DNA from: an uncultured Candidatus Saccharibacteria bacterium
Lineage (GTDB): Bacteria; Patescibacteriota; Minisyncoccia; Phycocordibacterales; UBA2100
DNA: 64,000 nt
NCBI GenBank assembly: GCA_964623775.1
Contig: CAZUVH010000003.1
Coordinates: 79,400 to 143,399 of the forward strand
Reading direction: 5' to 3'
Shown here: positions 7,773 through 63,631 of the stretch, piece after piece
How positions within the stretch are numbered: position 1 is the stretch's first letter
Layout of the letters: each line of letters starts with the position of its first letter
The notes under the pieces: generated by a model
Told to the model about the DNA's origin: nothing
The model's input: the letters and a program-made list of their open reading frames with translations, nothing else
The model's database searches: none
Translations under genes and position numbers: made by a program

Positions 7773-7774
7773 GT

Positions 7775-11239: not shown

Positions 11240-11407
11240 GGGCGCGATTCCTGTGTTGATTTCCGATCGATACTATACAATCTTTTGTCAAAAAAAGCAA
11301 AGAAGAATATTGACCAGTTCACTTTATTATGTTATACAAATTGTCGGATTAAACAGGTCTTTGACTCAAAGATCACACCCAATACTGAGGAAATCAGGAG
11401 AGGTACG

Positions 11408-12739: not shown

Positions 12740-12742
12740 GAC

Positions 12743-21507: not shown

Positions 21508-21508
21508 G

Positions 21509-24401: not shown

Positions 24402-24403
24402 GG

Positions 24404-25291: not shown

Positions 25292-25359
25292 GGTTGAAGT
25301 ACACAATCACTATAGCAGTATTAAAAAGAGAGAGCCGACCAAAATGGTCGGCTCTGTGT

Positions 25360-27780: not shown

Positions 27781-28053
27781 ATGAAATCGGAAATTAAAAA
27801 GAAGGTGATACGCCGTCTGCAGATCGCTCAAGGCCAAATGAGGGGTCTCATGCAAATGGTAGAAGAAGAAAAATATTGCGTCGACATCATTACGCAATCA
27901 AGCGCAATAAAGGAGGCGCTTTCTGGTGTGGAGCACCTCATGCTTGAAAACCACCTCGCTACCCACGTGCTTCAGCAAATGAAAGGAGGAAATGAAAAAA
28001 AGGCCGTCGGCGAGATTCTCAAGGTGTATAAACTTTCACGAAGAAAAAAATAG
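27781..28053 (+). CDS. csoR: CsoR/RcnR-family metal-sensing transcriptional repressor
   Basis: 90 aa, all α-helical. RLxIAQGQMRGLMQMVEEEKYCVDIITQ motif with Cys, then H..H. Heads the copper-gene cluster. Confidence 0.75.
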   Translation: MKSEIKKKVIRRLQIAQGQMRGLMQMVEEEKYCVDIITQSSAIKEALSGVEHLMLENHLATHVLQQMKGGNEKKAVGEILKVYKLSRRKK

Positions 28054-28054
28054 T

Positions 28055-28807: not shown

Positions 28808-28830
28808 TTACCAAGTATTTAGAAAAATCT

Positions 28831-29046
28831 ATGCATAATGCAGAAAAAAGAATCAGTCTCTTTTCAAGGCCCGTGTGGATCATTATCTCTGCAATCGGTA
28901 TTGTCGGACTCGTGTTCTTGCTCACCGAACACACATCACATGTCTTGATCGCGCTGCCGTATTTGGTCCTTCTCGCGTGCCCTCTGCTGCACATCTTTAT
29001 GCACAAAGGGCATAGTGGACATAGTCACGACAAATCAAAATCTTAA
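28831..29046 (+). CDS. DUF2933-family small membrane protein (His-rich C-terminus)
   Basis: LLACPLLHIFMHKGHSGHSH matches the DUF2933 pattern common in metal-resistance loci. Confidence 0.6.
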   Translation: MHNAEKRISLFSRPVWIIISAIGIVGLVFLLTEHTSHVLIALPYLVLLACPLLHIFMHKGHSGHSHDKSKS

Positions 29047-29278
29047 CGTATGAACGTACGTATCACACGTAAACACGATGCGACCAGGTTTCTATTAGGG
29101 GCAACTGTCTCCATCTGCTCCTTTTTTGGTGGGGTTTTCGTTGATGGGCATGCGGAAGCCGGTCATGTTCAGACTCCTTTTATAATGCATTTGTCCGGAG
29201 AGCACGATGAGTTATTGGATAATCGGCCGACTCAGCGAAAAAAGGAATTGCCAGCGGTTGCCTCAAATATGTAATGCT

Positions 29279-31561: not shown

Positions 31562-31564
31562 ACT

Positions 31565-32212
31565 ATGTGTTTTTCAGCAGCAGCAAGTTTCGCAGCAGGA
31601 GGAGCGCTCAGCGTGGCGGGAGGCTTGACAATTGCACAGGTGAAAAAGAAGACCGAGCTACCATTTGCCAGTATTCCGCTCTTGTTCGGCATCCAGCAGG
31701 TCATTGAAGGAGCAGTGTGGGTTTCTTTTGGTTCCCCAATAGTGAATACCGTGGCCACATACGCATACTCGATGTTTTCTCATGTGCTGTGGCCGGTCTT
31801 AGTCCCAGTCTCTGTTTTTCTGATGGAGACAGAACCAATTCGGAAAAAGATTCTCTCCTTGTTCTCATTTCTTGGTCTGGCAGTTGGTGGTTACCTGCTT
31901 TATTTCATCATTGCAGATCCTGTTACTGCTCATATCGTCAACAACAGTATTGCCTACCATTCTCCGCATTTGTACGCGTATCTCATCATGGCACTTTATC
32001 TCGTGGCGACATGCGGCAGTTGTTTTGTATCAAGTCACAGAATCATAAATCTGTTCGGTGTCGTTCTTCTCGTATCTTTCGCCGTCGCAGCGTGGTTCTA
32101 TACTGAAACATTTTTCTCGGTTTGGTGCTTCTTTGCTGCTATTCTCAGCATCATTGTGTACTGGTACTTCAAAAGAAAACCTGCTGCAGAAAAGCTGGTC
32201 GAAGCAGGCTGA
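31565..32212 (+). CDS. hypothetical membrane protein
   Basis: 6 or so TM helices. Directly follows copA. Confidence 0.45.
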   Translation: MCFSAAASFAAGGALSVAGGLTIAQVKKKTELPFASIPLLFGIQQVIEGAVWVSFGSPIVNTVATYAYSMFSHVLWPVLVPVSVFLMETEPIRKKILSLFSFLGLAVGGYLLYFIIADPVTAHIVNNSIAYHSPHLYAYLIMALYLVATCGSCFVSSHRIINLFGVVLLVSFAVAAWFYTETFFSVWCFFAAILSIIVYWYFKRKPAAEKLVEAG

Positions 32213-32244
32213 TTATTAACTTAGGTGTATTAACTCAAAAAACC

Positions 32245-32496
32245 ATGAACACATTTCGCGCAATTAAAATCGGATTGGCGTGGATAACGAGTACGTATGT
32301 CTTGTGCTACATCATTCTGGGCTTAATACCGGCTTCGCGACCATCGCTCTTGCCGTACATTCTGCATCTCAACGTCGGGCCGGTTGAGAATATCTTCACG
32401 CTTGGGAACTTTGTCGTCGGTCTCGTTCTCTGGAATGTTATCGTAGGAGCTGGTATTTGGTGGGTTGGGTTTCTTGGTAAATATATTAAAAACTAA
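32245..32496 (+). CDS. small hypothetical membrane protein
   Basis: Internal ATG of the ORF-track frame. 2 TM. Confidence 0.35.
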   Translation: MNTFRAIKIGLAWITSTYVLCYIILGLIPASRPSLLPYILHLNVGPVENIFTLGNFVVGLVLWNVIVGAGIWWVGFLGKYIKN

Positions 32497-32506
32497 TCAC
32501 AGAAAT

Positions 32507-32725
32507 ATGAAATTCTCAAAAGTAATGCACGTTAGTAGTGTTGTTGCCGGATTCGCCGGAGTCATCTCGTTCCTTATTGCAGTCTTCGGGAACGCTGAGA
32601 GCGTATTCGGTATTACGAAGGCCGACACTCTTGCATGTGCAGCCATTCTTATACTCATCGCCATTTGGACGCAGATAGCGACCATCCATCACATGATGCT
32701 TGAGAAAAGAAGCGAGCTTATGTAG
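32507..32725 (+). CDS. small hypothetical membrane protein
   Basis: Internal ATG. 2 TM. Confidence 0.35.
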   Translation: MKFSKVMHVSSVVAGFAGVISFLIAVFGNAESVFGITKADTLACAAILILIAIWTQIATIHHMMLEKRSELM

Positions 32726-32763
32726 CTTTTTTTCGCTACAGCACGTTTGTGCACAGATAAACC

Positions 32764-32794
32764 AAAGCCCGCCGCGCGAGACGCGACGGGCTTT
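32764..32794. terminator. hairpin AAAGCCCG-(15 nt)-CGGGCTTT between convergent genes
   Basis: 8-bp GC-rich stem. T-rich flank on the minus-strand side. Confidence 0.5.
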
Positions 32795-32813
32795 GCAGGC
32801 GAGGTCTCACGCT

Positions 32814-32942
32814 TTATTTCTTTGAAATGTGCTGCCAGAGCCAGACACCGAGTAGGCAGAGGTCGATGAAGATGACCACCGCAAAGAGTAAGTGCCAAAT
32901 GCTCCCGCCGCCCATCATTCCATATCCATATTGTCCCATCAT
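32814..32942 (-). CDS. candidate 42-aa membrane micro-protein (MMGQYGYGMMGGGSIWHLLFAVVIFIDLCLLGVWLWQHISKK)
   Basis: Translated by hand. Below the ORF-track size cutoff. Followed on its strand by the 32764-32794 hairpin plus TTTGGTTTAT. Confidence 0.3.
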   Translation of the reverse strand: MMGQYGYGMMGGGSIWHLLFAVVIFIDLCLLGVWLWQHISKK

Positions 32943-33076
32943 AGAAATAGTGTGTTTGATTTGTAATTGACCGCACTTCCAGTATACGACTCTTTTGGGG
33001 TTAAAGAAGCGTCGGATGTTTTTCTGTGTAGTTTTTTGATTCTTGCGTTTGAGGAAGAGAGGAGTAGAGTGAGTGT

Positions 33077-33445
33077 ATGTTTAGTTCTAGAGTGCTCACC
33101 TCATTTCTTCTAGCAATCATGGTGATCATGGCGGTTTTCGGTGTGCCCTTTGCTCTCAGCAATATGCATCATGATGTCGGGTGTCCGTATATGCCAGGCA
33201 CGGATGCGATGTGTCCCGTAGGTTTTCTAGCGCATCTCGGTCATTGGCAGACAGCATTTCTCGGAGTGATCATTAATACCTTTGCGTTCTACATTCTCGC
33301 ACTTGCATTTTTCGGTATTACAGCGTTTGCGCGCCCGCCCGATAGACACTACATACGACTTAGGTCATACGATCGTAGAACGCCACGATCTACTTTGCTC
33401 CAGATACTTTTTGCACGAGGACTCATTCACTCCAAGGCTTTTTAA
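33077..33445 (+). CDS. hypothetical membrane protein with Cys/His/Met cluster (HHDVGCPYMPG..MCPVGFLAHLGHW)
   Basis: ORF and hydrophobicity. Potential metal ligands. Copper-island context. Confidence 0.4.
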   Translation: MFSSRVLTSFLLAIMVIMAVFGVPFALSNMHHDVGCPYMPGTDAMCPVGFLAHLGHWQTAFLGVIINTFAFYILALAFFGITAFARPPDRHYIRLRSYDRRTPRSTLLQILFARGLIHSKAF

Positions 33446-33492
33446 TGCATAGTTTTTGTGCGCGCATTTTTCATGCGCGCCTTTAATCATGT

Positions 33493-34233
33493 TTGTTTCT
33501 CTTAACTATGGAATCAACATCTCAGCAGAAAAATAACTTCTTAACAGTACCTGTCGCGATCGTGATTGCGGGGGTGATCATTGCGATTAGCCTCTTTGTA
33601 GGTATTCGTAGCCGGACGCCAGTAGCTGCAAACCCGCAAGTACCGCAGGCTCCCGCTGGCAATCTCGAAGCGATGGCCCCGATCACTAAAGGAGATCACA
33701 TCCGAGGCAACGCGAATGCACCCATCACGATCGTCGAGTATTCGGATTTCGAGTGCCCTTTTTGTAAGCGCTTCCACGACACGATGAAGCAGGTCATGAG
33801 CGAATTTGGCGCAAGTGACAAGGTCGCATGGGTATACCGCCAGTTTCCGCTCGACGCGCTTCACTCGAAGGCGCGCAAGGAGGCCGTCGCTTCGGAGTGC
33901 GCGGCAGAGCTCGGCGGCAACGACGCATTCTGGAAATTCACCGACCGCTTCTTCGAGCTGACACCATCGAACAATCAAACCGACATTGATACGGTGCTTC
34001 CGCAAATCGCACGTGAAATCGGACTCAATGAGCAGAAATTCTCATCGTGTCTCGGCAGCGGAAAATATGATGCGCATGTGGAAGCCGACGTACAAAATGC
34101 TGGCGCAACGGGCGGCAACGGCACGCCGTGGAGCATTATTGTCGGGAAGAGCGGTAAGAAATATCCAATCAACGGTGCTCAGCCATACGATGCGATAAAA
34201 CAGCTTATCGAAGTTGCTCTGAAGGATAGATAG
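33493..34233 (+). CDS. DsbA-family thiol:disulfide oxidoreductase (membrane-anchored)
   Basis: CPFC active site in a thioredoxin-fold context (EYSDFECPFCKRFH). Confidence 0.75.
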   Translation: MFLLTMESTSQQKNNFLTVPVAIVIAGVIIAISLFVGIRSRTPVAANPQVPQAPAGNLEAMAPITKGDHIRGNANAPITIVEYSDFECPFCKRFHDTMKQVMSEFGASDKVAWVYRQFPLDALHSKARKEAVASECAAELGGNDAFWKFTDRFFELTPSNNQTDIDTVLPQIAREIGLNEQKFSSCLGSGKYDAHVEADVQNAGATGGNGTPWSIIVGKSGKKYPINGAQPYDAIKQLIEVALKDR

Positions 34234-34239
34234 TCGCCC

Positions 34240-34782
34240 ATGAATGCCGCGCGTATCGTCTTCCGAAATTGGAGCCATGCTCTGCTCGCAGGAGCGACCA
34301 GTCTTGCCGTGTTCATGGTCGCCACGTGGTTTCCAAATCTCCGACTAATTATGTCCATCTGGTCGGATTCCTCGGCGACACTTGCGGACAAGATCACGCT
34401 ACCGATCCGACTACTTGAGTCCATTACCACGAATTTCACTGTCCTTTCCGCTTCGTACACAATCGCGATTGCCATTTTGGCCGGCGTCAATGTTGCTTTC
34501 ATCGCTTACATCGTGAGGCGGCAAAAGGAGCGGCTCTCGGCGGCCGGGATGACAGTTGGAATCCTCGGGATTTTTTCTGGCGCGACGGGACTGGGGTGCG
34601 CCGCGTGCGGCTCTCTCATCATATCCTCGCTTCTTGCGACTACGGGCGGCGCGAGCGCCCTCGTACTCTTGCCTTTGCGCGGTGGAGAATTCGGCATTCT
34701 TGGCGTAGGGCTCCTCTTCGCTGCGACATACTCACTCGCAAAACACATTACCAAGCCCGCTTCATGTGAAGTCACCGTGTAG
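34240..34782 (+). CDS. hypothetical membrane protein with intramembrane GCAACGS motif
   Basis: 4 TM. A C-x2-C lies inside a predicted helix. Possible redox partner of the DsbA-like protein; speculative. Confidence 0.45.
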   Translation: MNAARIVFRNWSHALLAGATSLAVFMVATWFPNLRLIMSIWSDSSATLADKITLPIRLLESITTNFTVLSASYTIAIAILAGVNVAFIAYIVRRQKERLSAAGMTVGILGIFSGATGLGCAACGSLIISSLLATTGGASALVLLPLRGGEFGILGVGLLFAATYSLAKHITKPASCEVTV

Positions 34783-34867
34783 TCGTATGAACGACACATC
34801 ACTGCGTGTCTCTCGGACGGCTGCAGCGACGCCGCTGATCACGTAAGCCATTAATTACTCATCACCT

Positions 34868-35290
34868 ATGAAAAAAATCAAAACATCACACATTCTTATG
34901 GGATTCGCAACTATAATATTTGCTGGTCTTGTCCTCAATACATACGTCCAGTCAGGACGTACCGACATTATCGCGAAAAATGGGATGCATTGGCATCCGC
35001 AACTGTCAATGTATGTAAAAGGGGAAAAGATCGAAATTCCACAAAACATCGGCATCGGCCCAGTACATAATCCTATTCATACACATGACGACCTCCCGGC
35101 ATTGCATCTCGAATTTGGGGGTGTTGTACAGCAGAAGGACGTCATGCTCGGAAAGTTCTTCGACGCATGGGGCAAAGACATGCGCTCGTTTGGTTCCAGT
35201 ATGCGTATGACGGTCAATGGCAAGGAAAGTACTGAGTACGAAAATTACATGATGCGCGATGGTGATAAAATCGAGCTACGGTATGACTAA
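34868..35290 (+). CDS. hypothetical exported protein
   Basis: N-terminal anchor. HTHDD motif. No family recognised. Confidence 0.4.
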   Translation: MKKIKTSHILMGFATIIFAGLVLNTYVQSGRTDIIAKNGMHWHPQLSMYVKGEKIEIPQNIGIGPVHNPIHTHDDLPALHLEFGGVVQQKDVMLGKFFDAWGKDMRSFGSSMRMTVNGKESTEYENYMMRDGDKIELRYD

Positions 35291-36821
35291 GAAACAAATT
35301 GCCATCGTCGGCGGGGTGCTCGTGCTCGCGACTATCGCCGCGGCGGTACTGCTCGGATCGACCTCGGCGCAGCGAGCGCCGCAGGTAAAGGCGAATGAAA
35401 TCGTCGAACTAAAAAACGGCGACACGTACATGCTCACTGCGAGCTATATAACGAAAGAGATCGGCGGACGAGAGCAAAAGATGCTTGCATACAACGGCAT
35501 GATTCCTGGCCCAACGATCCGTGTGCAGCAGGGCGCGGAAATCACGGTCGACTTCAAGAACGAGACCGATATGCCCGCACTCCTCCACTCTCATGGTGTG
35601 CGCATGGACTATCGTTTCGACGGTGCGCAGACCTCGCAAGAGGAAATCGAGCCAGGCCAGTCGTTCAGTTACACGCTGAAATTCCCCGATGCCGGTGTGT
35701 ACTGGTATCATCCGCACGCCAATGAAGTGTACGGACAGCCGCTCGGGCTCTATGGCGCGTACGTCGTCATGCCGACCGATGAGGATTACTTCCCACCTGT
35801 AAACCGCGAAGAAGTCGTTTTTCTCTCCGATCTCCTGATGGATGGCGGAAGGATCGCGATAGACAAGAGGGGGGACGACTTCTCTCTCATGGGCCACTTC
35901 GGCAATCTCATGCTCGTGAATGGGCAAGAGAATTATGTGCTTCGTGCAAAAAAAGGTGAGGTTGTACGTCTGTATGTCATCAATGCGGCAAATGTGCGAC
36001 CGTTCAACTTTGCGATCAAGGGAATGAAGATGAAATTGATCGGCGGCGACAGTGGCGCGTACGAGAAAGCGACATGGCAAGAGAGCGTACTCCTCTCTCC
36101 GTCGGAGCGTGCAATCGTCGATGTCATGTTTACGATACCAACGACGATAATCAACGACACTCCGGCAGGTCTCACCGCGCTCGGGTCTGTCGTAATCGAT
36201 CCTGGCCAGGCGGGGACTTCGTACGCCTCACAGTTTGGTCAGCTGCAGGACAGTCGTGTCGTGAAAGACAGCATTGATACGTTTCGCCCGTATTTCAATA
36301 GGGCGCCCGACAGACGCATCGCGCTTACGCTCGATATGGGAATGGGCGGCGGACCTGGCACGCACATGATGCCAAATGGTACCGCGATGAGTAATACCGG
36401 AATGGCTATGGGTGTGCCTACGGGTGGCATTGAGTGGGAGGATGATATGGCGATGATGAATTCGATGTCGAACACCCAGATGGTGCAATGGCACATTGTC
36501 GATCAGGACACCGGCAAGAAAGACATGGATATAGATTGGACTTTCAGCAAAGGCGCGCCCGTTAAAATCCGCATCTTTAATGATCCACAATCGATGCATC
36601 CGATGCAGCACCCGATCCACTTCCACGGGCAGCGCTTCTTGGTGGTCGCGCGGGACGGAGTAGCGCAGACGAATCTCGGATGGAAGGACACGGTGCTCGT
36701 AAAAGCGGGGGAGACTGTCGATATTGTGCTCGATACGACCAATCCAGGAATCTGGATGGCGCACTGCCATATCGCCGAGCACCTCGCGGCGGGCATGATG
36801 TTTGCGTTCAAGGTGCAGTAA
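35283..36821 (+). CDS. multicopper oxidase (CueO/laccase-like) with Met-rich insert
   Basis: Four Cu-ligand motifs: HSHGV, WYHPHA, HPIHFHG, HCHIAEHLAAGM. Met-rich segment MGMGGGPGTHMMPNGTAMSNTGMAMG. Tat/Sec-type N-terminus. Confidence 0.9.
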   Translation: MTKKQIAIVGGVLVLATIAAAVLLGSTSAQRAPQVKANEIVELKNGDTYMLTASYITKEIGGREQKMLAYNGMIPGPTIRVQQGAEITVDFKNETDMPALLHSHGVRMDYRFDGAQTSQEEIEPGQSFSYTLKFPDAGVYWYHPHANEVYGQPLGLYGAYVVMPTDEDYFPPVNREEVVFLSDLLMDGGRIAIDKRGDDFSLMGHFGNLMLVNGQENYVLRAKKGEVVRLYVINAANVRPFNFAIKGMKMKLIGGDSGAYEKATWQESVLLSPSERAIVDVMFTIPTTIINDTPAGLTALGSVVIDPGQAGTSYASQFGQLQDSRVVKDSIDTFRPYFNRAPDRRIALTLDMGMGGGPGTHMMPNGTAMSNTGMAMGVPTGGIEWEDDMAMMNSMSNTQMVQWHIVDQDTGKKDMDIDWTFSKGAPVKIRIFNDPQSMHPMQHPIHFHGQRFLVVARDGVAQTNLGWKDTVLVKAGETVDIVLDTTNPGIWMAHCHIAEHLAAGMMFAFKVQ

Positions 36822-47918: not shown

Positions 47919-49940
47919 TCACTCTTCTCTCTTGAGTGGGAGGTGAATAGTAATAGTGGTGCCCGTGTGGGCGGTACTCTTGGCGCTGACGGTTCCGCCA
48001 TGCGATTCGATGATGCGCTTGGTGATCGCGAGGCCGAGCCCGCTGCCGCGGACATCCTCGCGCGGCTTTTGTGCGCGGTAGAAACGCTCAAAGATGTGAT
48101 CGATATCGCTCTCAGGTATCCCAATGCCGGTATCACTGATCGAAAGCGTCGCGCGCGTGCCATCTTTCTCAAGTGAGAACGTAATCGCCTTCTCGCCCTG
48201 CGGGCGCATGTATTTTACGGCGTTACTCGCGATATTCATGATCGCTTCGCGGATCTGCTGAGCATCTCCGCTGATGACAACGTGTGGGGTGATCGAGCTG
48301 TGTACACGTATGTCGCGCGAGGTCGCTATGACGGAGATCTCTTCCGCAATTTCTTCGAAAACATGGCTCAGATCGAATGGAGTGTGCGAGGTAGGGGCCC
48401 CGTGCTCAAGCTTGGCAAGTTTGAGGAGATCGTACGTAAATGCGGAGAGACTCGCGAGCGATTTTTCAAACGTGCGGATTTCTACATCGTCTGGCATTGC
48501 CCGTTTGAGTCGCTCAATCTTTGTCTGGAAAATGGCGAGCGGCGTCTGCAGATTGTGCGAGATATCAACCATCATTTGCTTCTGATTTTCTTGGGCGAGG
48601 CGTAGCTCTTGTGTCCGCATCGTGACTTTGTCTTCCAAATCGGCGGCGTGCCTCCTCACCTCGTCGTAGAGTCGTGCTCGCTCGAATGCGATCGCAGCCT
48701 GGTTGGAAAATGTATCGATGAGGCGCCGGTCGACTGCCGTGTACGGATCACCGGAGCGCTTGTCTCCGAGTACCACTTCACCCGACTGGCGTATTGAAAT
48801 TGATTGAGGGTGGAAGACCTCTTCGAGGATTTCCCTGGTCCTGTATTCCATGGCACCGAATTCGACATTGCGATGAAGCGCTTCGCTGAGCGCATGGAGC
48901 GTCTTGCCGTAATCGTACTCATCTTTAAAAAAGATCTTACTCGTCACTTTTCTGAAATACCGCTCAATGAAGGGGACACCGAAAATGCCAAGCACGGTCG
49001 TCACCCCGGCGCTGAAGAAAATGGAGCGTGGGCTCGTGCCGAAAATAAATCCGACGACCATGACGAGGCTGATATAGACACTGATAATGAGCGCGAGGAG
49101 CGCCGTATATATCAACCCGCGCTGAATGATGACGCGTATATCCATCAATTCGTGCCGAATGATCGCGTAGGCAGCTGCCGCGAAAAATACAATCGAGCTC
49201 ATTGGACCTACCAGGTTGAATGTTGAATTGCCTGCGAGTGCGGGAAGTAAGACGTCACTCATAAGTGTGCATGCGATAAAAATCCCCAAGCCAAGCATCA
49301 GATACTTTAACTGTAAGCGCGTTTTCTTATCGGCGTGTATATAGCTGAGAATTAAGAGCGCTGAGCTCCAAATGATGTAGATTCCAAGACCGAGACCGTA
49401 CCATATCAAAAGCGGGCCAATCACGGGACTGATGTTTCCATCCGGTTCGATAACCATATTTTGAACCAGTAGACCGGAGGGAATGATGAAAAGTGCAGCC
49501 ACGACAAAAGGAATATATATGTACCACTGCATCATGCGCGTTTTTTCTTTACGTGCGGGGAAGGTTTGCGCAAACAAAAATAATCCGAGCACAAGAATGA
49601 GCCCTCCGTAATGGATGCATTTATCGAAGAGAAAATTCCCTGTGATGCTGAGGAGTGCGATCCCTGCAACAAAGAGTGTCGCCCCGCTTGTTAGGACAAA
49701 GAAGGATCGATTGATCGAATTGCGCGGACTTTTATAGAGGACATACCCCCCAACAGCAGCGATGCCGAGAGCCAGCAAAAGTAGGCCGTAATTATTGGCG
49801 GCAGTAGAGACGGTAAGCATGAATGCACTGATAATAACAAATGACCCGATCGAAATCTCGATCGGGTCACTTTCATGCGAGTGACAGGATTTTACGCGCT
49901 TTTTTCGCAAGCACGTTTTCAATTTGCTCAAGCTGTACAA
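47919..49940 (-). CDS. sensor histidine kinase with large polytopic N-terminal membrane domain
   Basis: H-box HNLQTPLAIF. HATPase N/G boxes (NAVKYM, GLGLAI). More than 6 TM helices at the N-terminus. The start may lie downstream of 49940. Confidence 0.85.
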   Translation of the reverse strand: MYSLSKLKTCLRKKRVKSCHSHESDPIEISIGSFVIISAFMLTVSTAANNYGLLLLALGIAAVGGYVLYKSPRNSINRSFFVLTSGATLFVAGIALLSITGNFLFDKCIHYGGLILVLGLFLFAQTFPARKEKTRMMQWYIYIPFVVAALFIIPSGLLVQNMVIEPDGNISPVIGPLLIWYGLGLGIYIIWSSALLILSYIHADKKTRLQLKYLMLGLGIFIACTLMSDVLLPALAGNSTFNLVGPMSSIVFFAAAAYAIIRHELMDIRVIIQRGLIYTALLALIISVYISLVMVVGFIFGTSPRSIFFSAGVTTVLGIFGVPFIERYFRKVTSKIFFKDEYDYGKTLHALSEALHRNVEFGAMEYRTREILEEVFHPQSISIRQSGEVVLGDKRSGDPYTAVDRRLIDTFSNQAAIAFERARLYDEVRRHAADLEDKVTMRTQELRLAQENQKQMMVDISHNLQTPLAIFQTKIERLKRAMPDDVEIRTFEKSLASLSAFTYDLLKLAKLEHGAPTSHTPFDLSHVFEEIAEEISVIATSRDIRVHSSITPHVVISGDAQQIREAIMNIASNAVKYMRPQGEKAITFSLEKDGTRATLSISDTGIGIPESDIDHIFERFYRAQKPREDVRGSGLGLAITKRIIESHGGTVSAKSTAHTGTTITIHLPLKREE

Positions 49941-50445
49941 GATACGGTCTCATGTCGCCGCGAGCATAATACTCCCTACAGGATTCATCGACCGCGATGA
50001 TATCGAGAGCGTAATCGATGTCCCAAAAAGCGATACCTAGGCGCATTACGTGACGATGGACATCGTTATTATGCTCCACCAATCCGTACAACTTCCCTTT
50101 AGAAAGTGCATACACGGTAGCGGCGTATATCGCCAGCGCCCCAGCTTGCGGTGAGATTGATGCCCATCGACCGTACTGCATCCCATTATCGGTCGTGAGT
50201 CCCAAAGGAAACGATTGTTTTTCCAATCGGTATATTCGCTCCAATGCGAGCTTTCCGTCGGCGCCAGGCCACTCGACACCTATGCACGCGACGACAGTGC
50301 AATCTTTCTCGACGACAGCGTATACGTCGGCAATTGGCGGCACTGTGTTGTATGTCGACATATACACTTTATCGACGAACGACCTCACGGCCGCCTTGTC
50401 AGGAGGGGATTCCGCGTAACGTGCAGTAAAACGTTTACTACTCAT
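49873..50445 (-). CDS. hypothetical protein co-transcribed with the ThiF-like enzyme (possible acyltransferase fold; unassigned)
   Basis: ORF. Overlaps the thiF-like stop by 8 nt with the 50445 start. Alternative start at 50517. Confidence 0.45.
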   Translation of the reverse strand: MSSKRFTARYAESPPDKAAVRSFVDKVYMSTYNTVPPIADVYAVVEKDCTVVACIGVEWPGADGKLALERIYRLEKQSFPLGLTTDNGMQYGRWASISPQAGALAIYAATVYALSKGKLYGLVEHNNDVHRHVMRLGIAFWDIDYALDIIAVDESCREYYARGDMRPYLVQLEQIENVLAKKARKILSLA

Positions 50446-51433
50446 GAGCGCACTCTTTTCTCTCCACCGCCTTCGCACAATGGAAGCCTGCATCAAAATA
50501 AAGATACCCGGGTGCACGAACGGGCCTCACTAGATTACGAACGATGGGGGACGCCCGCAAAAGATGAAAAAGCACATGATCGGCCAGAAAGCCGCTCGCC
50601 ATCGGTGGATTCGTACTCACGATCGTTGCACGGTTTTCCTCGAACAATCTCTTTTTTGCCACCTCGACATTGCTGTATGCAGCCGTGTCGGTCGTGTATT
50701 CGGGTAATTCAGGCACAAGACCTGTCAGCACCTTGCGCATGACCAGGTGCACCTCCTGGGGCGATGCCGTTCGCGACTGAATTCGTTCCTGAAGATTTCT
50801 TGCTTCCGGGTATGTGAGGTTTAAAAGTTGTTCCATCGTGTATCCGTCCGGCTCGAAGCAGAAGAGCCGCGTGCCAAATCCCACGGTGTTGCAATTAAGG
50901 ACGGTTATACCGAATGCGCGTGCTTTTTGATGTAGCAGAATCCGTGCACCGACCGCCCAGAATTCGATCTCATCGCAGACGATATCGCATCCTTGCAGAA
51001 AGGACGCGGCCGTGCGTTCGTTAATACCTTGTGGATATACAACGAGCGTCGTGTCATCGCTAACGGCGCGCACCATTTTTGCTGTCTCGAATGCTTTCGA
51101 TTTTCCAACAGTGTTGCGACCGGCGGCATATTGTCGATTGATATTCGACACGTCGAATTCTTCGCAGTCGGCGATACGCACTTCACCAACACCGAGGCGC
51201 ACGAATATAGAGGCGAGGAGTCCGCCCATGCCGCCGCAGCCAGCAATGCCGACGACAGCACCGCGCAACATCTCTTGTTCCTCTCGTGTGATCCACCCAA
51301 TATTGCGATCAGTGCGCTCCGCGTAGTAATCTCGGTCAGCCCTCCGTGGCAGCAGACGATAGACCGTATCGCGGTCGACTTTCCTGGGAAGAATTTTGCA
51401 TTCAACGACTGGAAGCCCATGACCTTGCATCAT
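50438..51433 (-). CDS. ThiF/MoeB/HesA-family E1-like adenylyltransferase
   Basis: Rossmann GIAGCGGMGG about 60 aa from the N-terminus. E1-like nucleotide-binding core. AGGAG RBS. Confidence 0.8.
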   Translation of the reverse strand: MMQGHGLPVVECKILPRKVDRDTVYRLLPRRADRDYYAERTDRNIGWITREEQEMLRGAVVGIAGCGGMGGLLASIFVRLGVGEVRIADCEEFDVSNINRQYAAGRNTVGKSKAFETAKMVRAVSDDTTLVVYPQGINERTAASFLQGCDIVCDEIEFWAVGARILLHQKARAFGITVLNCNTVGFGTRLFCFEPDGYTMEQLLNLTYPEARNLQERIQSRTASPQEVHLVMRKVLTGLVPELPEYTTDTAAYSNVEVAKKRLFEENRATIVSTNPPMASGFLADHVLFHLLRASPIVRNLVRPVRAPGYLYFDAGFHCAKAVERKECAHE

Positions 51434-51554
51434 TTGATTTCTCCTGTATAGGTTATGTAAAGAACGACTACTCTCACAATCGTAAATGCACGTCGATTGT
51501 CGATAGGTGAAATAAAAATAAATATCTGCTGAAAATCGGATAAATTATTTATGA

Positions 51555-51590
51555 GATAAAAATAAAGCGCCCCGCAAAACGGGGCGCTTT
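51555..51590 (-). terminator. terminator after the methyltransferase gene, followed by about 130 bp of AT-rich promoter region
   Basis: GCGCCCCG-CAAAA-CGGGGCGC with TTTATTTTTATC on the minus strand. Confidence 0.7.
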
Positions 51591-51592
51591 GA

Positions 51593-52300
51593 TCACATTT
51601 TTTTGGCAACTACTGTCAGTGCATACGGCTCGTGCACAAATTTCTCCATAAAGGCACGCAGTGCGGGATTATTGGTTGCTTTGATTATGGCATCGATCTC
51701 TTCTCTCGTGCACTTTGATGCTGATAGGCTCGCCACGCAAAATCCGCTTTTTGTCATGAGTTCGCAAACAGTCTCCTGCTGCTCGGGGTAAAGAATGAAT
51801 TCTTCTCCCAAGAGCGAGAGAGAAAGCCGCTCAGGAGTCTCCGGCTTCGCATACCAACACGTAAATACGACGGTGCCGCCGATGCGAAGGATGCGATATT
51901 TCTCGGCGAGTACCTGCAGCTTCTCCTTTCGAGGCACATAATCGATCGAAAAATACGAGACGACTGCATCGAAGGATTGCCCCAGGAAGGGGAGATGGAG
52001 CATTGATGCGTTGCGTACATCGAGTCCGCGGCTACAGGCACGTGCGACATACGCGCGCGAGATATCCACACCCACCGTATCCGCACCCCGAGAATTCATT
52101 ATGGTCATGAGCCTTCCTGAGCCGCATCCGACATCAAGTATGCGCTTTCCCTGTATCGACCCCATCGAGTCCTCGAGTGACTCGACCATATGTGGGTACG
52201 CGATCCGCGTGTTGAACAAATCTGTCTCCGTATCGTACCGTTCGCCCGCGCGATTGTACGAACGCCGCACTCTTTTGAGAATCGTTCCAATGGTCTCCAC
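51593..52300 (-). CDS. class I SAM-dependent methyltransferase
   Basis: Motif I ILDVGCGSGRL. A GTG start at 52300 preceded by GGAGGAGG is preferred over the TTG at 52324. Confidence 0.8.
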   Translation of the reverse strand: METIGTILKRVRRSYNRAGERYDTETDLFNTRIAYPHMVESLEDSMGSIQGKRILDVGCGSGRLMTIMNSRGADTVGVDISRAYVARACSRGLDVRNASMLHLPFLGQSFDAVVSYFSIDYVPRKEKLQVLAEKYRILRIGGTVVFTCWYAKPETPERLSLSLLGEEFILYPEQQETVCELMTKSGFCVASLSASKCTREEIDAIIKATNNPALRAFMEKFVHEPYALTVVAKKM

Positions 52301-52404
52301 GAGACACCTCCTCCGTTTTTGCAATGATCAACTACTTATAAAAGAATCGCACGAAAAAGATCAAATATTGCTCAATTAAAAATAATATCGGGATAGACAA
52401 ACGT

Positions 52405-53808: not shown

Positions 53809-53944
53809 TGGATTCCTCCGTACATTGCTATTGTTTTGTACCAGTAAACATAATACAACTTTAAAAACTAAAGTCAAGTTGTCAGTATATTCTTTTTACT
53901 GTTTAGTAGCGAACAGATAAGTCCTTTGAAAAGAAAGGTACGAC

Positions 53945-55156
53945 ATGCTCGACCTCAAAAAATCGTATGCCCGCTCGCTGCAGCCGGGCGTGCTGCATTT
54001 TGCGGCGCACAGCCATCATCTGCGCCCCGATATTACCCGGGACGCGACGATGCAATGCTGGGACGACGCAGCGCGAATGCTCGACAGGAAGTGGGGGTAC
54101 ATTTTTGGTACGGTAATCCCCGAGGCGCAGAAGAATGTAGCAGAGCTTCTTGGTGTCGGTAGGCCGGAAAACATCGCGTTTGCCGGCAATACGCACGAAT
54201 TCGTGGCGCGCATCTTGAGCGCGTTTAATCCGACGAGAGAGAAGCCGCTGCGTGTCCTTACGACCGACAGCGAATTCAACAGCTTCACCCGCCAAATGGC
54301 GCGGACAGCTGAAAATCCTCATGTGCATGTGACAAAGGTTCCTGTGAGTCCGCGCCACACGTTTGCACAACGCCTCATGACGCTCACGAATACCGTGAAT
54401 TTCGATCTCATCTTCTTCAGTCAGGTGTTTTACAACTCCGGCTTTCGAATACCGGATGATGAGATGGAGATTATCGTCGACGGGATCTCACAGTCGATAT
54501 TGTCTTCCAATGCGGTGATCGTGATCGACGGCTACCATGGCTTTTGCGCGGTGCCGACATCGCTGAAGGCGATCGAGGATCGTGTCTTCTATCTCGCGGG
54601 CGGATACAAATACGCTCAGTGGGGTGAAGGTGCATGCTTTCTGTATGTGCCTCCGGCCTGTACGCTCAGGCCGGAAAATACCGGATGGTTTGCGAGTTTC
54701 GGCACTCTCGAGAAGGGGTCGCAGTCGTCGAATCTCGTATCCTACAGCGACGATGCGTTCCGATTCTGGGGCGCGACATTCGATCCGGCAGGCTTGTACC
54801 GTCTGAATGCGGTCTGCGACTGGATGCGCGAGAAAAAGATTACCGCGCAAGAGCGTTGGTATCACGTGCTCACCCTGCAATCGCACTTTCTCCAGTCTGG
54901 AGTGAAATCTAGATATTTTGAGCTATCAAAACTCGTCACGCCACTACCGCGGGCGCAGCGCGGGAATTTTCTGAGCTTCGACCAAGGGGATGAGGGGAGC
55001 GCTTCTACACTCGTCGAGAAGCTCGCAGTGCGCGGAGTGATCGTGGATTCTCGCGGGCCTCTGATTCGCATTGGCTTCGGCATCTATCACGACCTCAGTG
55101 ATGTTGATCAGCTCATCAAAACCATCGAATCGTTGGAGGCAGAGTATGTACGCTAA
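53945..55156 (+). CDS. kynU: kynureninase (PLP-dependent, aminotransferase class V fold)
   Basis: GGYKYAQWGEGA matches the kynureninase PLP-lysine block (C)TYKYLNGGPG. WFASFG resembles WFGH. C-terminal RGVIVDSRGPLIRIGF resembles RGVIGDYREPRIMRFGF. Confidence 0.75.
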   Translation: MLDLKKSYARSLQPGVLHFAAHSHHLRPDITRDATMQCWDDAARMLDRKWGYIFGTVIPEAQKNVAELLGVGRPENIAFAGNTHEFVARILSAFNPTREKPLRVLTTDSEFNSFTRQMARTAENPHVHVTKVPVSPRHTFAQRLMTLTNTVNFDLIFFSQVFYNSGFRIPDDEMEIIVDGISQSILSSNAVIVIDGYHGFCAVPTSLKAIEDRVFYLAGGYKYAQWGEGACFLYVPPACTLRPENTGWFASFGTLEKGSQSSNLVSYSDDAFRFWGATFDPAGLYRLNAVCDWMREKKITAQERWYHVLTLQSHFLQSGVKSRYFELSKLVTPLPRAQRGNFLSFDQGDEGSASTLVEKLAVRGVIVDSRGPLIRIGFGIYHDLSDVDQLIKTIESLEAEYVR

Positions 55157-56234
55157 TGCGGTGACACCGCTCGGGTTTCTCTCGATCAATCCGCGGCTAA
55201 AAGTGGAGGGAGTCGGGCGAGTTTCCAGACTCGCGCGACAATTGCCGAGTCTTATCGCTGCGGGAAGCGATGTATTGCGCAAGGAGCTTATTGCGCTGCC
55301 GTTTCTTGCGAACGTACCTGCAGTAGATGCGGGGCGGCTGCGTGCGCTCATGCGAGATTATCATTATCTCCAGAGCGCATACGTGCACGCCGAGCCAGGA
55401 GTCACGAAGATTCCAGCCACACTTGCTGTGCCATCGTTCTTGGTCGCGCAAGTGCTCGGGCAAAAACCGATACTCTCGTATGCTTCGGTTGTCTTGGAAA
55501 ACTGGGAGTTTGAGTGCGAAGGCATCACAAACCTCGGTATCCGACCGATCGTCACTTTTACGGGGACTGAAGACGAAAAAGGCTTCATCCTCGCGCATGT
55601 GCGCATCGAAGAGAAGGCGGGCGACGCGCTCCATACGCTTCCGTTGTTGTTCGACGATGTGCGACAGCGACGTGAAGACGAGGTGCGTGAAAGGCTCATG
55701 CACATGGCGCAGACGATAGCTGCTGCTCGCGTGCTCTTTAGGGCTATTACCAAGCTCTGCGATCCGCGCGTGTACTTCGATCGTATACGGCCGTGGATGT
55801 ACGGATTCAAGGGTGTCGTCTACGAAGGCGTGCCCGAGTATCAGAATCTTCCGCAATCGTTTATCGGAGCGAGTGGAGCGCAGAGCTCCGTCTTGCCGGC
55901 ACTCGACGCGGCACTCGGTATTTGCCACGACAGTAGTTATTGCTCGGCCTATGTCGAGAAATTGCGACTGTACATGCCGCCTGGTCACAGACGTTTTATC
56001 GAAGGGTCGGAGAATGCACCTTCCTTGCGGAAATTTGTGCTCGAATCAGGTAGTGCTGATTTGAGACATGCGTACAATGCCGCAGTCGAAAGTCTGCGCG
56101 CATTTCGTGTCGCTCACACTGGGTTTGCGACTCGCTATATCGGAATGTATGGCAAGGTACGTGGCACGGGAGATACGCATTACCAGGAACTTTTCGAGCA
56201 GTACGAAAAGGACACTGAAGCAGCATTGCTCTAG
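55146..56234 (+). CDS. indoleamine 2,3-dioxygenase (IDO) homolog
   Basis: Blocks align to eukaryotic IDO: VYEGV....GASGAQSS (GGSAGQSS), LRLYMPPGHRRFI (MRRYMPPAHRNFL), SLRKFVLESGSADLRHAYNAAVESL ([25 protein letters not shown]). GGAGG RBS. Confidence 0.8.
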   Translation: MYANAVTPLGFLSINPRLKVEGVGRVSRLARQLPSLIAAGSDVLRKELIALPFLANVPAVDAGRLRALMRDYHYLQSAYVHAEPGVTKIPATLAVPSFLVAQVLGQKPILSYASVVLENWEFECEGITNLGIRPIVTFTGTEDEKGFILAHVRIEEKAGDALHTLPLLFDDVRQRREDEVRERLMHMAQTIAAARVLFRAITKLCDPRVYFDRIRPWMYGFKGVVYEGVPEYQNLPQSFIGASGAQSSVLPALDAALGICHDSSYCSAYVEKLRLYMPPGHRRFIEGSENAPSLRKFVLESGSADLRHAYNAAVESLRAFRVAHTGFATRYIGMYGKVRGTGDTHYQELFEQYEKDTEAALL

Positions 56235-56239: not shown

Positions 56240-56278
56240 AAAATAAACCACCCTGGTGTCAGGGTGGTTTTCTTTTTT
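56240..56278. terminator. bidirectional terminator
   Basis: AAACCACCCT-GGTGTC-AGGGTGGTTT followed by TCTTTTTT. Confidence 0.7.
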
Positions 56279-56292: not shown

Positions 56293-56790
56293 TCAAGACT
56301 TGTCGTTATTTTCGGGAGTGATGTGCTCCGATGAGTCGAGATTGGGGCCCACATGAAAGGCGCGACCAAATCCTTCGACATACCTTCCATGCATCGGCGT
56401 AAGGCGGAAAAGTGTGAAGTCCGCAAGCGATCTGATCTCGGGGAATCTACTACCAAATTTCTTCTCAAAGAGTCCCATTACCTTGATCCACACCGCGCAC
56501 TCTCGCGGTACATCTGTGACATCACAACGACATGTGTAGCGCCTGCGCGCAAAAACGTTGGGCGAATTACTTTCGTCGTCGATAAACATAATGCTCGCTT
56601 TTTGGGTCGCGAGTAGATCGCGTGTGTGAGCCGAGAGGGAGCTCGTGTAGATATAATACGAACCCTCATGCTTCACGAATGGAGCGTAGCTTGATGTCGG
56701 CCATTCGTCTTCGCCAACAGTCGCGAGCTCAAGAGTCTTTCTTGTCGCGACGAATGCCGCTGCGCGTTGCTCTGGTGTCTTCTTCATCAC
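56293..56790 (-). CDS. pyridoxamine 5'-phosphate oxidase-like FMN-binding split-barrel protein
   Basis: PNPOx-like N-terminal pattern and size. Family-level call only. Confidence 0.6.
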   Translation of the reverse strand: MMKKTPEQRAAAFVATRKTLELATVGEDEWPTSSYAPFVKHEGSYYIYTSSLSAHTRDLLATQKASIMFIDDESNSPNVFARRRYTCRCDVTDVPRECAVWIKVMGLFEKKFGSRFPEIRSLADFTLFRLTPMHGRYVEGFGRAFHVGPNLDSSEHITPENNDKS

Positions 56791-60629: not shown

Positions 60630-62057
60630 CTACGGAGCCTTTTCAATGCGGAGATTCGGAAAGATTGCCTTGCCGAGCGCCACCATGCTCTCGTCTTCCT
60701 CAGACTTCGGCTGATACGTGCCGGAATTGCCGGAGAGCCTGATGATGCCGTCGGCATCTTTCCAGCACTCTCCCGCCCAAACCACGTACTGTTGCGTCTT
60801 GTCGACCTCGCAATCCCCGTAAGGCGACCACAGGTATCCGGACATGAGTACGTGTTTTGAAAGCACCCAGTCCACCAATTTTGATCCTACGGTGATACGC
60901 GCAATGATCACTCGCACGGTCGGATTATTGCCAGGCGAGAGAGGTGGGGAACGCACGACCACCATATTGTATTTGTTGCGCGATCCTGCTTGTGTGCGAA
61001 GCATGTCATAGATATCGCGCTCGCTCACCGTCGCTATTTCGTGGTACGTAGATGCGCCCAGGATCTTTCGTATGAGCCATATAACCGGTCGCGAGAAGAG
61101 CAGATTCTTCTTGAGTATTGTGGAAATGCTCGGATTTTTTTGCGGAAATGGCCGCAATGCCCGTGCAAAATATTCATCCACATTCACACGATCGACAAGT
61201 CCTTCGAAAAGCGCATGTGGCCCCCACAACTGCCGCAGTGCCTGACCAGCGGCAGGAGCCGCTGTGACCCGGATACGGATATCCTTGCAATAGGGCCGAT
61301 TATGCGGAAGGGCAGGAGCGATCTGTTCTCTCTTATACGGCACGCGGGATCTGAACTTCGGTATCGCATCGACGATCCGTGACACCACAGGCAGTTTTTT
61401 GAAATGTCGCCACGGTGCCGTGAATCCCGCGAATATGACGTGGCGCATGTAGTCTTCCATGCTGTAGCGCGTGGTGCGTATCACTTCAAATTGCACAGGC
61501 GTGCCCTTGTAGCAGAGGCCATGTGCGAGAAGCGTTGTCATCAGTTGGTGAGGGAATGTGATCGAGGCGAGCCGTTTTCCGCCGGAGGTGAAACCGGCAG
61601 CGCTCATGACACGCATGGTGCCATTGACGCACGTTCGGAATTTCCTGCCCTGGAATTTTTGCATTCCCTTGCGCAAGCCCACAATCGCTTCAGCTGGCGG
61701 GTCTACCAATCGGATCCAAATACCTGATTGCACGATCGATCCTGAATCGCGCGTGATGTCTGCTATCTCCGCAGCTTTTCGCCACACGGAATACGCCGCG
61801 AATTTCTGATATCCGTCGCAATCGGTTTTTGGGACGACGAGGGCCGTGTTGGGCTTTCCAAACACAAGGAATGTTTCTGCACAACCGCTGAACACATCTT
61901 CGACGCGAGCAGTTGTGTATTCGCCAATCTCGCGCTCGCGCACATCGGCATCGATCACCCGTCTGACTACGGATCCAAAAAGCAGCTCGGGGCGGTACTC
62001 GAACCGTCGCGCATAAGCACCCTCGGTCTGAGAGCTCTTCAGGCTCAGCATTTGCAT
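60630..62057 (-). CDS. hypothetical 475-aa protein downstream of the ECF sigma/anti-sigma pair
   Basis: Long ORF with coherent composition. No family recognised. Confidence 0.6.
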   Translation of the reverse strand: MQMLSLKSSQTEGAYARRFEYRPELLFGSVVRRVIDADVREREIGEYTTARVEDVFSGCAETFLVFGKPNTALVVPKTDCDGYQKFAAYSVWRKAAEIADITRDSGSIVQSGIWIRLVDPPAEAIVGLRKGMQKFQGRKFRTCVNGTMRVMSAAGFTSGGKRLASITFPHQLMTTLLAHGLCYKGTPVQFEVIRTTRYSMEDYMRHVIFAGFTAPWRHFKKLPVVSRIVDAIPKFRSRVPYKREQIAPALPHNRPYCKDIRIRVTAAPAAGQALRQLWGPHALFEGLVDRVNVDEYFARALRPFPQKNPSISTILKKNLLFSRPVIWLIRKILGASTYHEIATVSERDIYDMLRTQAGSRNKYNMVVVRSPPLSPGNNPTVRVIIARITVGSKLVDWVLSKHVLMSGYLWSPYGDCEVDKTQQYVVWAGECWKDADGIIRLSGNSGTYQPKSEEDESMVALGKAIFPNLRIEKAP

Positions 62058-62200: not shown

Positions 62201-63631
62201 CTACATGACGGGCGGTGGGGGCGCGTCGAGGAGTTCGGATACGAGTGGGATGAGAATCATCTTGGGGTAGTACTGTTCGCCGGCCGGAGCTTTGGTCACC
62301 GGGAACATGAGCGCCGGGACGTAGAGCTCCTGCGACTCGTTGCCTTTGTAATTGTAGGTGTGCATGAGCACTTTTTGTGGAGTGCCGACCTCGATCTCCA
62401 CTTTGTTGATCGTGATGCCGTCACTCGGCTGTGGCTGCCACGCATGTATGCCGCCCTTCCCGAGTATCGCAAGAATCTTGTCGCTGCTCGCTTCCAATGT
62501 GTACGTGGAGCTCGTGAATGTCTGTGAATTGAGACCGTTGACCGACATCACACGCTTGTCGATGACGCTCACACCTACCTGGAGGCCATGCGGGTATCCG
62601 CCGTCTTCGTAGACCGCTGAGCCGGCGATCTTGAGCGGGAAGGTGACGGTGACCTGCTCAGGCGCGGGCATGCTTGCGGCGTCTTCGGCCGTGATGCCTA
62701 TGGGAGCGTCGTACTTTTGCACGATCGGGTCGCCGAAATTCGCGCGACTGATGTTGTGATCGGAGAGGAACGATTCTGCGATCTGGATAATTTCATCATC
62801 CGAAGGCATTTGGCTCATTGGGACCTGGCGCGGCGGACCGTCTTTGTAATTGAGGCTCGGCCACTCGGTGTAATTTGGATTGATGCTGATCGTGCCCTCG
62901 TCAAAACTTACGTTGATGGAATATCCGTATGGCTTGTCTTCCACAAGCTCGAAGCTGCGCACGCGTGCGCTTGAGTATGCGCCGAGGTCAACGAGGCCAA
63001 AGTTGAATTTGCGTAGCTGCGATGCGATCTGTCCGCTGCTCTTTTGATTCTTCACGCGGTTGTAGACGTCGCCTGCACCCGAGAGGTCGAGCGGCTCGCC
63101 CTTGTAGACGTAGCTGTATATCGTGATCGGTCCTGGCGGGAGCATCATTTTCATATCAGCCGTGCCGCCGCCCATGCCGGCAGGGGCTGTAGCGTAATTG
63201 CCGGTGGCGCTATCTTCAGCCACCATCGGCATCGAGCTCGAGCGCGTCTCAGGTGATCCGCCCAGGCCTGGCTGTTGCGCCGTGAGCGTGCCGTAGGCTC
63301 CGGAGCCAAGGCGTTGAATCTCCTGATTCATGGCAAATATCTGACCGCCGCTTTGGCCTTGCGAGGCTGTGTAGATGAAGGGGAGTGCGAGCAGCACCGC
63401 GAGCACCGGCACTACGTATCGCAGATCAAAGAGGTATCGCGAGAGCGGCGACGGGGTAGGAGCGCCGAGAAGCCGCGCTCGGAGACTCTGCACGAATGCT
63501 TCATCGATACGGGAGTCCGGCTTTTTGGCCACAAATTCCGCTATGAGCGTGCGTATCTCGCTCTCGTGCGCCGCGAATCCAGGGTCGAGCTGCAGGAGTT
63601 CTTGTACGATTTCTTCGATGTTGTTTTTCAT
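62201..63631 (-). CDS. anti-sigma factor (N-terminal cytoplasmic domain, single TM, large extracytoplasmic domain)
   Basis: Start 6 nt after the sigma-factor stop. Topology is about 60-aa N-domain, TM (VVPVLAVLLALPFIY), then a 380-aa external domain. Confidence 0.65.
   Translation of the reverse strand: MKNNIEEIVQELLQLDPGFAAHESEIRTLIAEFVAKKPDSRIDEAFVQSLRARLLGAPTPSPLSRYLFDLRYVVPVLAVLLALPFIYTASQGQSGGQIFAMNQEIQRLGSGAYGTLTAQQPGLGGSPETRSSSMPMVAEDSATGNYATAPAGMGGGTADMKMMLPPGPITIYSYVYKGEPLDLSGAGDVYNRVKNQKSSGQIASQLRKFNFGLVDLGAYSSARVRSFELVEDKPYGYSINVSFDEGTISINPNYTEWPSLNYKDGPPRQVPMSQMPSDDEIIQIAESFLSDHNISRANFGDPIVQKYDAPIGITAEDAASMPAPEQVTVTFPLKIAGSAVYEDGGYPHGLQVGVSVIDKRVMSVNGLNSQTFTSSTYTLEASSDKILAILGKGGIHAWQPQPSDGITINKVEIEVGTPQKVLMHTYNYKGNESQELYVPALMFPVTKAPAGEQYYPKMILIPLVSELLDAPPPPVM

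Follow-up and report, generated by a model that had tools for sequence, protein, structure and literature searches.

Textbook biochemistry includes an anthranilate branch of the kynurenine pathway, reportedly encoded in bacteria by kynA, kynB and kynU, a gene set said to have been described by Kurnasov and colleagues in 2003 in Pseudomonas, the Bacillus cereus group and Ralstonia. Here we analyse a two-gene operon at positions 53945 to 56234 of a 64-kb stretch of contig CAZUVH010000003.1 (the window, by which we mean the whole stretch of DNA that was analysed). The chemistry that we propose for it is that of the kynA-kynB-kynU pathway, from tryptophan through N-formylkynurenine and kynurenine to anthranilate and alanine, and its dioxygenase and kynureninase-type genes are likewise clustered. 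The locus differs in carrying an indoleamine 2,3-dioxygenase (IDO) instead of a tryptophan 2,3-dioxygenase (TDO, the product of kynA), a divergent kynureninase that fails the TIGR01814 model, and no linked KynB-type formamidase; with neither a TDO (PF03301) nor a KynB-type formamidase in the window, it is not a canonical kynA-kynB-kynU locus. We conclude that the pair is most likely a two-gene operon for the anthranilate branch, converting tryptophan to anthranilate and alanine, and we put the probability of this reading at about 0.75.

The best solved relatives of the second gene are human IDO1 (E 6e-38) and IDO2 (PDB 2D0T, 5WMW, 6CXU and 9UYY), which belong to the same Pfam family, have the same two-domain haem fold and are ∼28–29% identical to it. 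Compared with human IDO1, the window protein is ∼40 residues shorter, with both the N-terminus and the JK loop reduced, and it is prokaryotic, encoded in an operon with a gene for a pyridoxal phosphate (PLP)-dependent hydrolase, and has His151 in place of Ser167. Prokaryotic members of the IDO family have been known, if uncommon, since at least 2011. Of those assayed by Yuasa, Ushigoe and Ball (2011, Gene 485:22; cited after PMC4217691), the enzymes of Gemmatimonas aurantiaca and Streptomyces scabiei are efficient, and those of Erythrobacter litoralis and Neptuniibacter caesariensis have very low activity.

An initial annotation of the pair, made from the letters alone, held that the second gene encodes a eukaryotic-type IDO and not KynA, and our searches bear this out. 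The product matches the Pfam IDO family (PF01231) at 219.8 bits (E 7.2e-65), above the curated threshold of 26, with residues 28–337 aligned to positions 33–362 of the 412-position model, whereas the TDO family (Trp_dioxygenase, PF03301) has no match to the gene and a tblastn search of the whole window with a TDO protein found nothing. The sequence blocks on which the annotation had relied are all present: GASGAQSS at residues 241–248 (55866–55889), YMPPGHRRF at 276–284 (55971–55997) and FVLESGSADLRHAYN at 297–311 (56034–56078). Aligned with human IDO1, GASGAQSS falls on GGSAGQSS of the G261–S268 loop and GTGDT on the JK-loop GTGGT, while Y112, F147, Y210/F211, R215, D254 and R321 correspond to Y126, F163, F226/F227, R231, D274 and R343. 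The proximal haem histidine, whose loss the annotation had said would speak against an IDO, is His324 (56115–56117, forward strand) and aligns with human H346. No variation is seen at this residue, at R215 or F147, or in the GTG of the JK loop among 29 homologs with identities down to ∼30%, and H324 is also invariant in an 18-sequence alignment. His151, at the position of human Ser167, is nearly invariant among microbial homologs, and it accounts for the human S167H mutant (6CXU) ranking first by sequence.

The annotation had also named a non-haem model as a result that would refute it; neither refuting outcome was obtained. An AlphaFold2 model (pLDDT 90.7) superposes on human IDO1 in Foldseek with a TM score of 0.93 and a root-mean-square deviation of 1.9 Å, and the top 50 PDB matches are all IDO1 or IDO2 (TM 0.90–0.93). 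Gene 2 is a genuine member of the IDO family with the two-domain, all-helical haem fold, and is predicted to bind haem b and to convert L-tryptophan and O2 to N-formylkynurenine.

Both open reading frames (ORFs) of the pair lie exactly where the annotation had placed them on the forward strand. Gene 1 (53945–55156) encodes a 403-residue PLP enzyme of the class-V fold, assigned to a divergent kynureninase-type family by Pfam, profile and Foldseek comparisons, and gene 2 (55146–56234) encodes the 362-residue IDO homolog, assigned by Pfam, the human IDO1 match and the AlphaFold2 model. Read from the sequence, the IDO gene begins at ATG 55146–55148 and gene 1 ends with TAA at 55154–55156, an overlap of 11 nt. 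A mechanical ORF list opens the IDO frame at TTG 55071; we take the ATG as the real start because a Shine-Dalgarno sequence, GGAGG (55135–55139, forward strand), precedes it by 6 nt within the 3′ end of gene 1, and because gene callers run independently on L001 and L002, two further assemblies of this organism, predicted the same 362-residue protein (loci outside the window are cited by L number). Since the IDO start codon falls inside the end of the upstream gene, the earlier description of the pair as translationally coupled is right as regards the coupling; the partner, which had been called a kynureninase, is kynureninase-like and not a canonical member.

Downstream, a bidirectional intrinsic terminator (56245–56278; hairpin 56245–56270 with an 11-bp stem and T-runs on either strand) separates the stop codon of the IDO gene from that of a convergent HutZ-like gene. 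It closes the pair, and the transcription unit therefore comprises exactly two genes. A consensus scan gave a sigma-70-like promoter candidate upstream, TTGCTA-18-CATAAT (53825–53854, forward strand, 9/12 matches), which is weak evidence, as the count of promoter candidates in the region is not above shuffled expectation. We also considered recent horizontal transfer of the operon and rejected it for lack of a signal: its GC content of 54.9% is not an outlier against the window mean of 52.0% (standard deviation 2.1).

For gene 1, the best solved relative by both profile and fold is the kynureninase of Pseudomonas fluorescens (Pf; PDB 1QZ9), at ∼20% identity. Pfam finds Aminotran_5 (E 7e-9) and KYNU_C (PF22580; E 2e-7, 31.3 bits against a cutoff of 27), and precomputed domain assignments give KYNU_C to most homologs of the gene. 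The single sequence matches 1qz9 with an E value of 9e-6, and a profile built from 23 family members matches it over its full length with 8.5e-33, its best PDB match, followed by the cystine lyase C-DES (9e-20) and human kynureninase (2e-18). The AlphaFold2 model (pLDDT 87.5, with low confidence in the active-site loop 251–278) likewise has 1qz9 as its top Foldseek match. In the profile alignment, S23, W50, F111, D195, W248, R273, T278 and R375 of the family correspond to Pf S36, W64, F129 (the stacking Phe), D201 (the PLP-N1 Asp), W256, R277, T282 and R375 (the carboxylate Arg), and Y221-K222 to Pf Y226-K227, the PLP lysine K222 being encoded at 54608–54610 on the forward strand. These residues are invariant in 28 gene 1 homologs; Pf Asp132 aligns with a Phe in the family. 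We take Pf K227 to be the Schiff-base lysine, D201 to bind the pyridine nitrogen and R375 to bind the substrate carboxylate. We further take it, from work of the Phillips laboratory, that Pf W64 and G281-T282, which are H102 and S332-N333 in the human enzyme, are positions at which the 3-hydroxykynurenine-preferring human enzyme differs. Because W50 and A277-T278 match the Pf and not the human residues, the gene 1 family looks like a kynurenine-type rather than a 3-hydroxykynurenine-type enzyme.

The names given to homologs of gene 1 would suggest another function. About half of those in the JGI set read "selenocysteine lyase/cysteine desulfurase", the NCBIfam CsdA model scores 34 bits, about level with the kynureninase model TIGR01814 and with PvdN, and the fold is close to SufS and NifS; gene 1 might then be such an enzyme, adjacent to the IDO gene without functional meaning. 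We give this explanation almost no credence. A desulfurase nucleophile would be expected ∼120–140 residues past the PLP lysine, and after residue 239 no alignment column has Cys in at least 30% of the 28 homologs, so that the nucleophile is absent from the family. Moreover, kynureninase is the best profile match by 13 orders of magnitude, the KYNU_C domain lies above its Pfam threshold, and the genomic neighbours described below are kynA for most sampled homologs and IDO for the nearest clade. We therefore return to the kynureninase-type assignment, under which gene 1 is predicted to hydrolyse L-kynurenine to anthranilate and L-alanine. The family numbers more than 7000 proteins at ∼50% identity, named either "selenocysteine lyase/cysteine desulfurase" or "kynureninase", and is large, divergent, kynA-linked and apparently uncharacterised. 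A second, very divergent paralog of the family (20% identity; Aminotran_5 and a weak KYNU_C) lies at 11623–12810 on the reverse strand of L007, adjoining genes for an amino-acid permease and an AMP-binding enzyme.

Gene context was surveyed in 80 metagenomic loci of the PLP family (L012–L091), searched with the TDO of L007 and with the window IDO. In 46 of the 80, kynA lies directly upstream on the same strand with a gap of 0–66 bp, and in another 7 it is adjacent in some other arrangement, giving 53 loci with kynA beside the PLP gene; 20 have no kynA despite enough upstream sequence, and 7 are too short to tell. None of the 80 carries an IDO gene. L007 itself, a 3.6-Mb genome, has a PLP homolog (P0082, 51% identical to gene 1) that follows a PF03301 TDO gene without a gap. 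The TDO-linked proteins (P0082 and those of L012–L091) are 43–53% identical to gene 1, keep the same invariant residues and follow the same two-gene module logic, with the difference that their partner is kynA, usually upstream, whereas in the window clade the partner is IDO, usually downstream.

That the IDO gene is a conserved partner is seen in the PLP proteins closest to gene 1 (56–62% identity), which adjoin IDO genes in L003, L009, L092/93 and L094/95. In L096 the order is IDO then PLP, with the IDO (38% identical to that of the window) upstream, where kynA normally sits. Across these loci the IDOs are 38–49% identical to the window protein, and altogether an IDO gene is adjacent to a kynureninase-type gene in six independent loci. 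A neighbour-joining tree, drawn without bootstrap, places all the IDO-linked PLP proteins in one clade that lies within the TDO-linked set. The simplest reading is that a single displacement of TDO by IDO took place inside a conserved two-gene module that opens tryptophan and cleaves kynurenine.

Other genes recur beside the TDO-PLP pairs, namely those for an AMP-dependent ligase (11 loci), an SDR (10), an acyl-CoA dehydrogenase (9), RidA (9) and an enoyl-CoA hydratase (8). These flanks suggest CoA-dependent aromatic-acid catabolism downstream of anthranilate in other lineages; none of these recurrent neighbours is found in the window. Beside the PLP-IDO pairs we note a patatin-like hydrolase gene that precedes the pair on the same strand in L009 (5751–6830) and L092 (476–1567), the two products being 57% identical to one another. 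It could be a candidate for the formamidase of those loci; as the formamidase of the window it was rejected, the window having no homolog. A 95-residue membrane protein follows the pair in L009 (9445–9735) and L092 (4126–4413; 41% identical), with nothing similar in the window, and DUF6629 also occurs near the pair in L009.

The annotation's remark that bacterial IDO homologs are uncommon holds up: the whole family has 2105 cluster representatives among 1.84 billion, and the 80 sampled PLP-family loci contributed none. Only 3 representatives among the 1.84 billion exceed 43% identity to the window protein, which is a member of a small, deeply branching IDO clade. More distant IDOs without a PLP partner occur in Spechtbacteria, Gemmatimonadota and proteobacterial metagenome-assembled genomes (MAGs) and on a soil contig; the protein of a Spechtbacteria MAG is 37% identical to that of the window, and those of Gemmatimonadota (L011) and the proteobacterial L010 are ∼31% identical. 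In L004 (8001–9925) and L005 (2286–4210), the 3′ end of an IDO gene (38% identity) overlaps a convergent alpha/beta-hydrolase gene, possibly that of a formamidase partner. The proteobacterial MAG locus L010 (3493–6891, forward strand) encodes a 749-residue protein whose IDO-like N-terminal part is fused to a cytochrome b5 domain, directly followed by a complete second IDO. Mammalian IDO1 can be reduced by cytochrome b5, and the L010 fusion may be a self-reducing IDO system.

The scheme that we propose builds on the families to which the two proteins belong, the conservation of their catalytic residues, the modelled folds, the layout of the operon and the recurring gene pairing set out above. 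In the first step the haem enzyme would insert O2 across the C2–C3 bond of L-tryptophan, giving N-formylkynurenine, and in the second, after deformylation, the PLP enzyme would hydrolyse L-kynurenine to anthranilate and L-alanine, IDO having probably displaced TDO as the ring-opening partner in the small clade to which the window belongs. The likely yield would be alanine (and from it pyruvate and nitrogen) together with formate, with anthranilate rather than NAD as the end product.

The initial annotation had left the direction of the pathway as anthranilate or NAD, and had pointed to an NAD locus at the left end of the window as support for a tryptophan-to-NAD route. The pair would then be the entry to de novo NAD synthesis, by way of 3-hydroxykynurenine and quinolinate, working with that locus. 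The window does encode NadE, NAPRTase, an NMN adenylyltransferase-like protein, PnuC and NrtR, and bacterial kynurenine-to-NAD routes exist (PMC4217691). The left-end locus (68–8758) is nonetheless a compact island of NAD salvage and regulation without de novo genes; it encodes an ADP-ribosylglycohydrolase, a glutamine-dependent NadE, NAPRTase, a cytidylyltransferase-Nudix protein (NadM-like), NrtR, PnuC and a NadR-like kinase. These genes all serve salvage, uptake or regulation, and the island lies ∼45 kb from the operon and is unrelated to it, so that this part of the annotation's argument falls away. Among the 61 window ORFs scanned with Pfam there was no KMO, HAAO, NadC or NadA/B and no formamidase of the KynB type, the cyclase type or any other, which agrees with the annotation's own failure to see a formamidase or downstream NAD genes. 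The residues of the PLP enzyme at W50 and A277-T278, which match Pf and not the human enzyme, also argue against a 3-hydroxykynurenine route, and the genes conserved next to the modules of related loci are of CoA-ligase and beta-oxidation-like type and do not concern NAD. We consider an NAD route very improbable; given a salvage-only island and no de novo genes in the window, the anthranilate branch is favoured, and of the two directions that the annotation had offered it is the supported one.

There are several points that weigh against the anthranilate reading itself. The main gap in the pathway is the absent formamidase step: neither the operon, nor the rest of the window, nor the conserved neighbours of the family include a candidate kynurenine formamidase. 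This step may be encoded elsewhere, may be carried out by an unspecific hydrolase, or may be bypassed if the PLP enzyme accepts N-formylkynurenine. Nor was a reductase or cytochrome b5 partner for the IDO seen. Gene 1 falls far short of the TIGR01814 kynureninase equivalog cutoff (29.9 versus 246.4 bits, over an alignment of residues 63–396 with positions 73–397 of the 400-position model), for which reason we file it as a kynureninase-type family and not as canonical KynU, and by fold 1qz9 is only narrowly ahead of PvdN and SufS/NifS. The substrates and activities of both enzymes are predictions from sequence, and the removal of the formyl group and the physiological role of the operon are likewise proposals of ours. 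The assignment of the host, given below, draws on the named homologs of one gene, that for NadE. Finally, several recombinant bacterial IDOs turn over tryptophan very slowly (Yuasa et al. 2011, cited after PMC4217691). As some bacterial IDOs are nearly inactive on tryptophan, membership of the IDO family does not guarantee efficient tryptophan dioxygenation.

It may be that the operon does not serve bulk catabolism and is there to form or eliminate one particular indole- or kynurenine-type compound. It might supply kynurenine or anthranilate for signalling or as a building block, oxidise another indoleamine such as D-tryptophan or 5-hydroxytryptophan, or, in an episymbiont, deplete the tryptophan of the host cell. 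IDOs accept a broader range of substrates than TDOs (PMC4217691), a two-step catabolic stub without a visible downstream path would be odd for a cell that is probably reduced and salvage-dependent, and there are no anthranilate-consuming genes in the window. Yet the window IDO conserves the Arg that binds the tryptophan carboxylate and the pocket residues of IDO1, the PLP partner requires an alpha-amino-acid substrate and keeps the carboxylate-binding Arg of kynureninase, the PLP family is normally paired with the tryptophan-specific TDO, and no biosynthetic genes (for nonribosomal peptide synthetases, polyketide synthases or PqsA-like enzymes) are conserved beside the pair. On balance we regard such a specialised role as unlikely. 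Somewhat less probable still in our view is a formamidase-free module in a Parcubacteria clade, in which the PLP enzyme would act on N-formylkynurenine itself and a tiny, salvage-dependent cell would use the operon to strip host tryptophan or make kynurenine-type signals and would not serve nutrition; if this were true, such an episymbiont module would be a microbial parallel to the IDO-mediated depletion of tryptophan in animals. The reading that we prefer remains the catabolic anthranilate branch.

The host is probably a Parcubacteria bacterium of the candidate phyla radiation (CPR) able to use O2. For the window NadE, the named homologs are only from Paceibacterota, Parcubacteria, Kaiserbacteria and Nomurabacteria (46–58% identity), and one locus of the IDO clade comes from a 0.1-µm groundwater fraction. 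A cyo-type haem-copper quinol oxidase operon occupies 20647–25306 on the reverse strand, with genes for haem O synthase (UbiA family) and subunits IV, III, I and II with COX_ARM, and because this operon is complete, O2-dependent chemistry is plausible. The Parcubacteria lineage is generally described as fermentative, and a quinol oxidase is unusual there.

Convergent with the IDO gene, at 56293–56790 on the reverse strand, is a gene for a HutZ/HugZ-like split-barrel protein (TIGR04110 at 1.6e-38, below cutoff, and PNPOx_N), a haem-handling type of protein encoded next to a haem enzyme, in an organism that possibly lacks haem synthesis; the two genes share the bidirectional terminator. As a haem-linked part of the operon it was rejected: L009, L092/93, L094 and L096 do not show this arrangement, and we therefore treat the gene as a neighbour. 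Two response-regulator genes lie between the operon and a cluster at 49873–52324 (reverse strand) that encodes a ThiF-family adenylyltransferase (PRK08223-like), an S-adenosylmethionine-dependent methyltransferase and a 214-residue, weakly thermostable-hemolysin-like protein; the idea that the response regulators and kinase close by control the operon was set aside, since they are not conserved beside the pair in other lineages. Elsewhere, a copper neighbourhood at 27992–36821 encodes a DUF7282/cupredoxin-like protein, a CopA-type P-type ATPase with HMBD, DUF6629, a DsbA-like thioredoxin and a three-domain multicopper oxidase, and the window also carries OmpR-type regulators and a PrgI-family protein. 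Many of its ORFs have no Pfam match, including several of 150–530 residues (such as 11150–12739, 60630–62057 and 62201–63631), and a tRNA scan and an Rfam scan at the gathering threshold found nothing in the 64 kb.

The operon is a rare variant of a known pathway and not a new kind of system. What is new is limited to the small IDO clade, its probable CPR host and the sharing of one operon with a divergent kynureninase-type family whose partner is otherwise TDO; within the library that was searched, no relevant paper dealt with IDO or kynureninase in Parcubacteria or Patescibacteria. The distribution of IDO is extended to a probable member of the candidate phyla radiation, and the locus offers a clean natural example of non-orthologous displacement, IDO taking the place of TDO inside a conserved operon. 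Tryptophan activity is in doubt for several bacterial IDOs, and the operon context bears on that question: because IDO replaces TDO in a conserved operon, there is context evidence that this IDO clade works on tryptophan. The analysis also flags an inconsistently named family of more than 7000 proteins which, judged by gene context, supplies the kynureninase that goes with kynA in many uncultured bacteria. For the organism itself, the O2-dependent haem enzyme, the quinol oxidase operon and the HutZ-like haem protein bear on the aerobic capacity of reduced CPR organisms.

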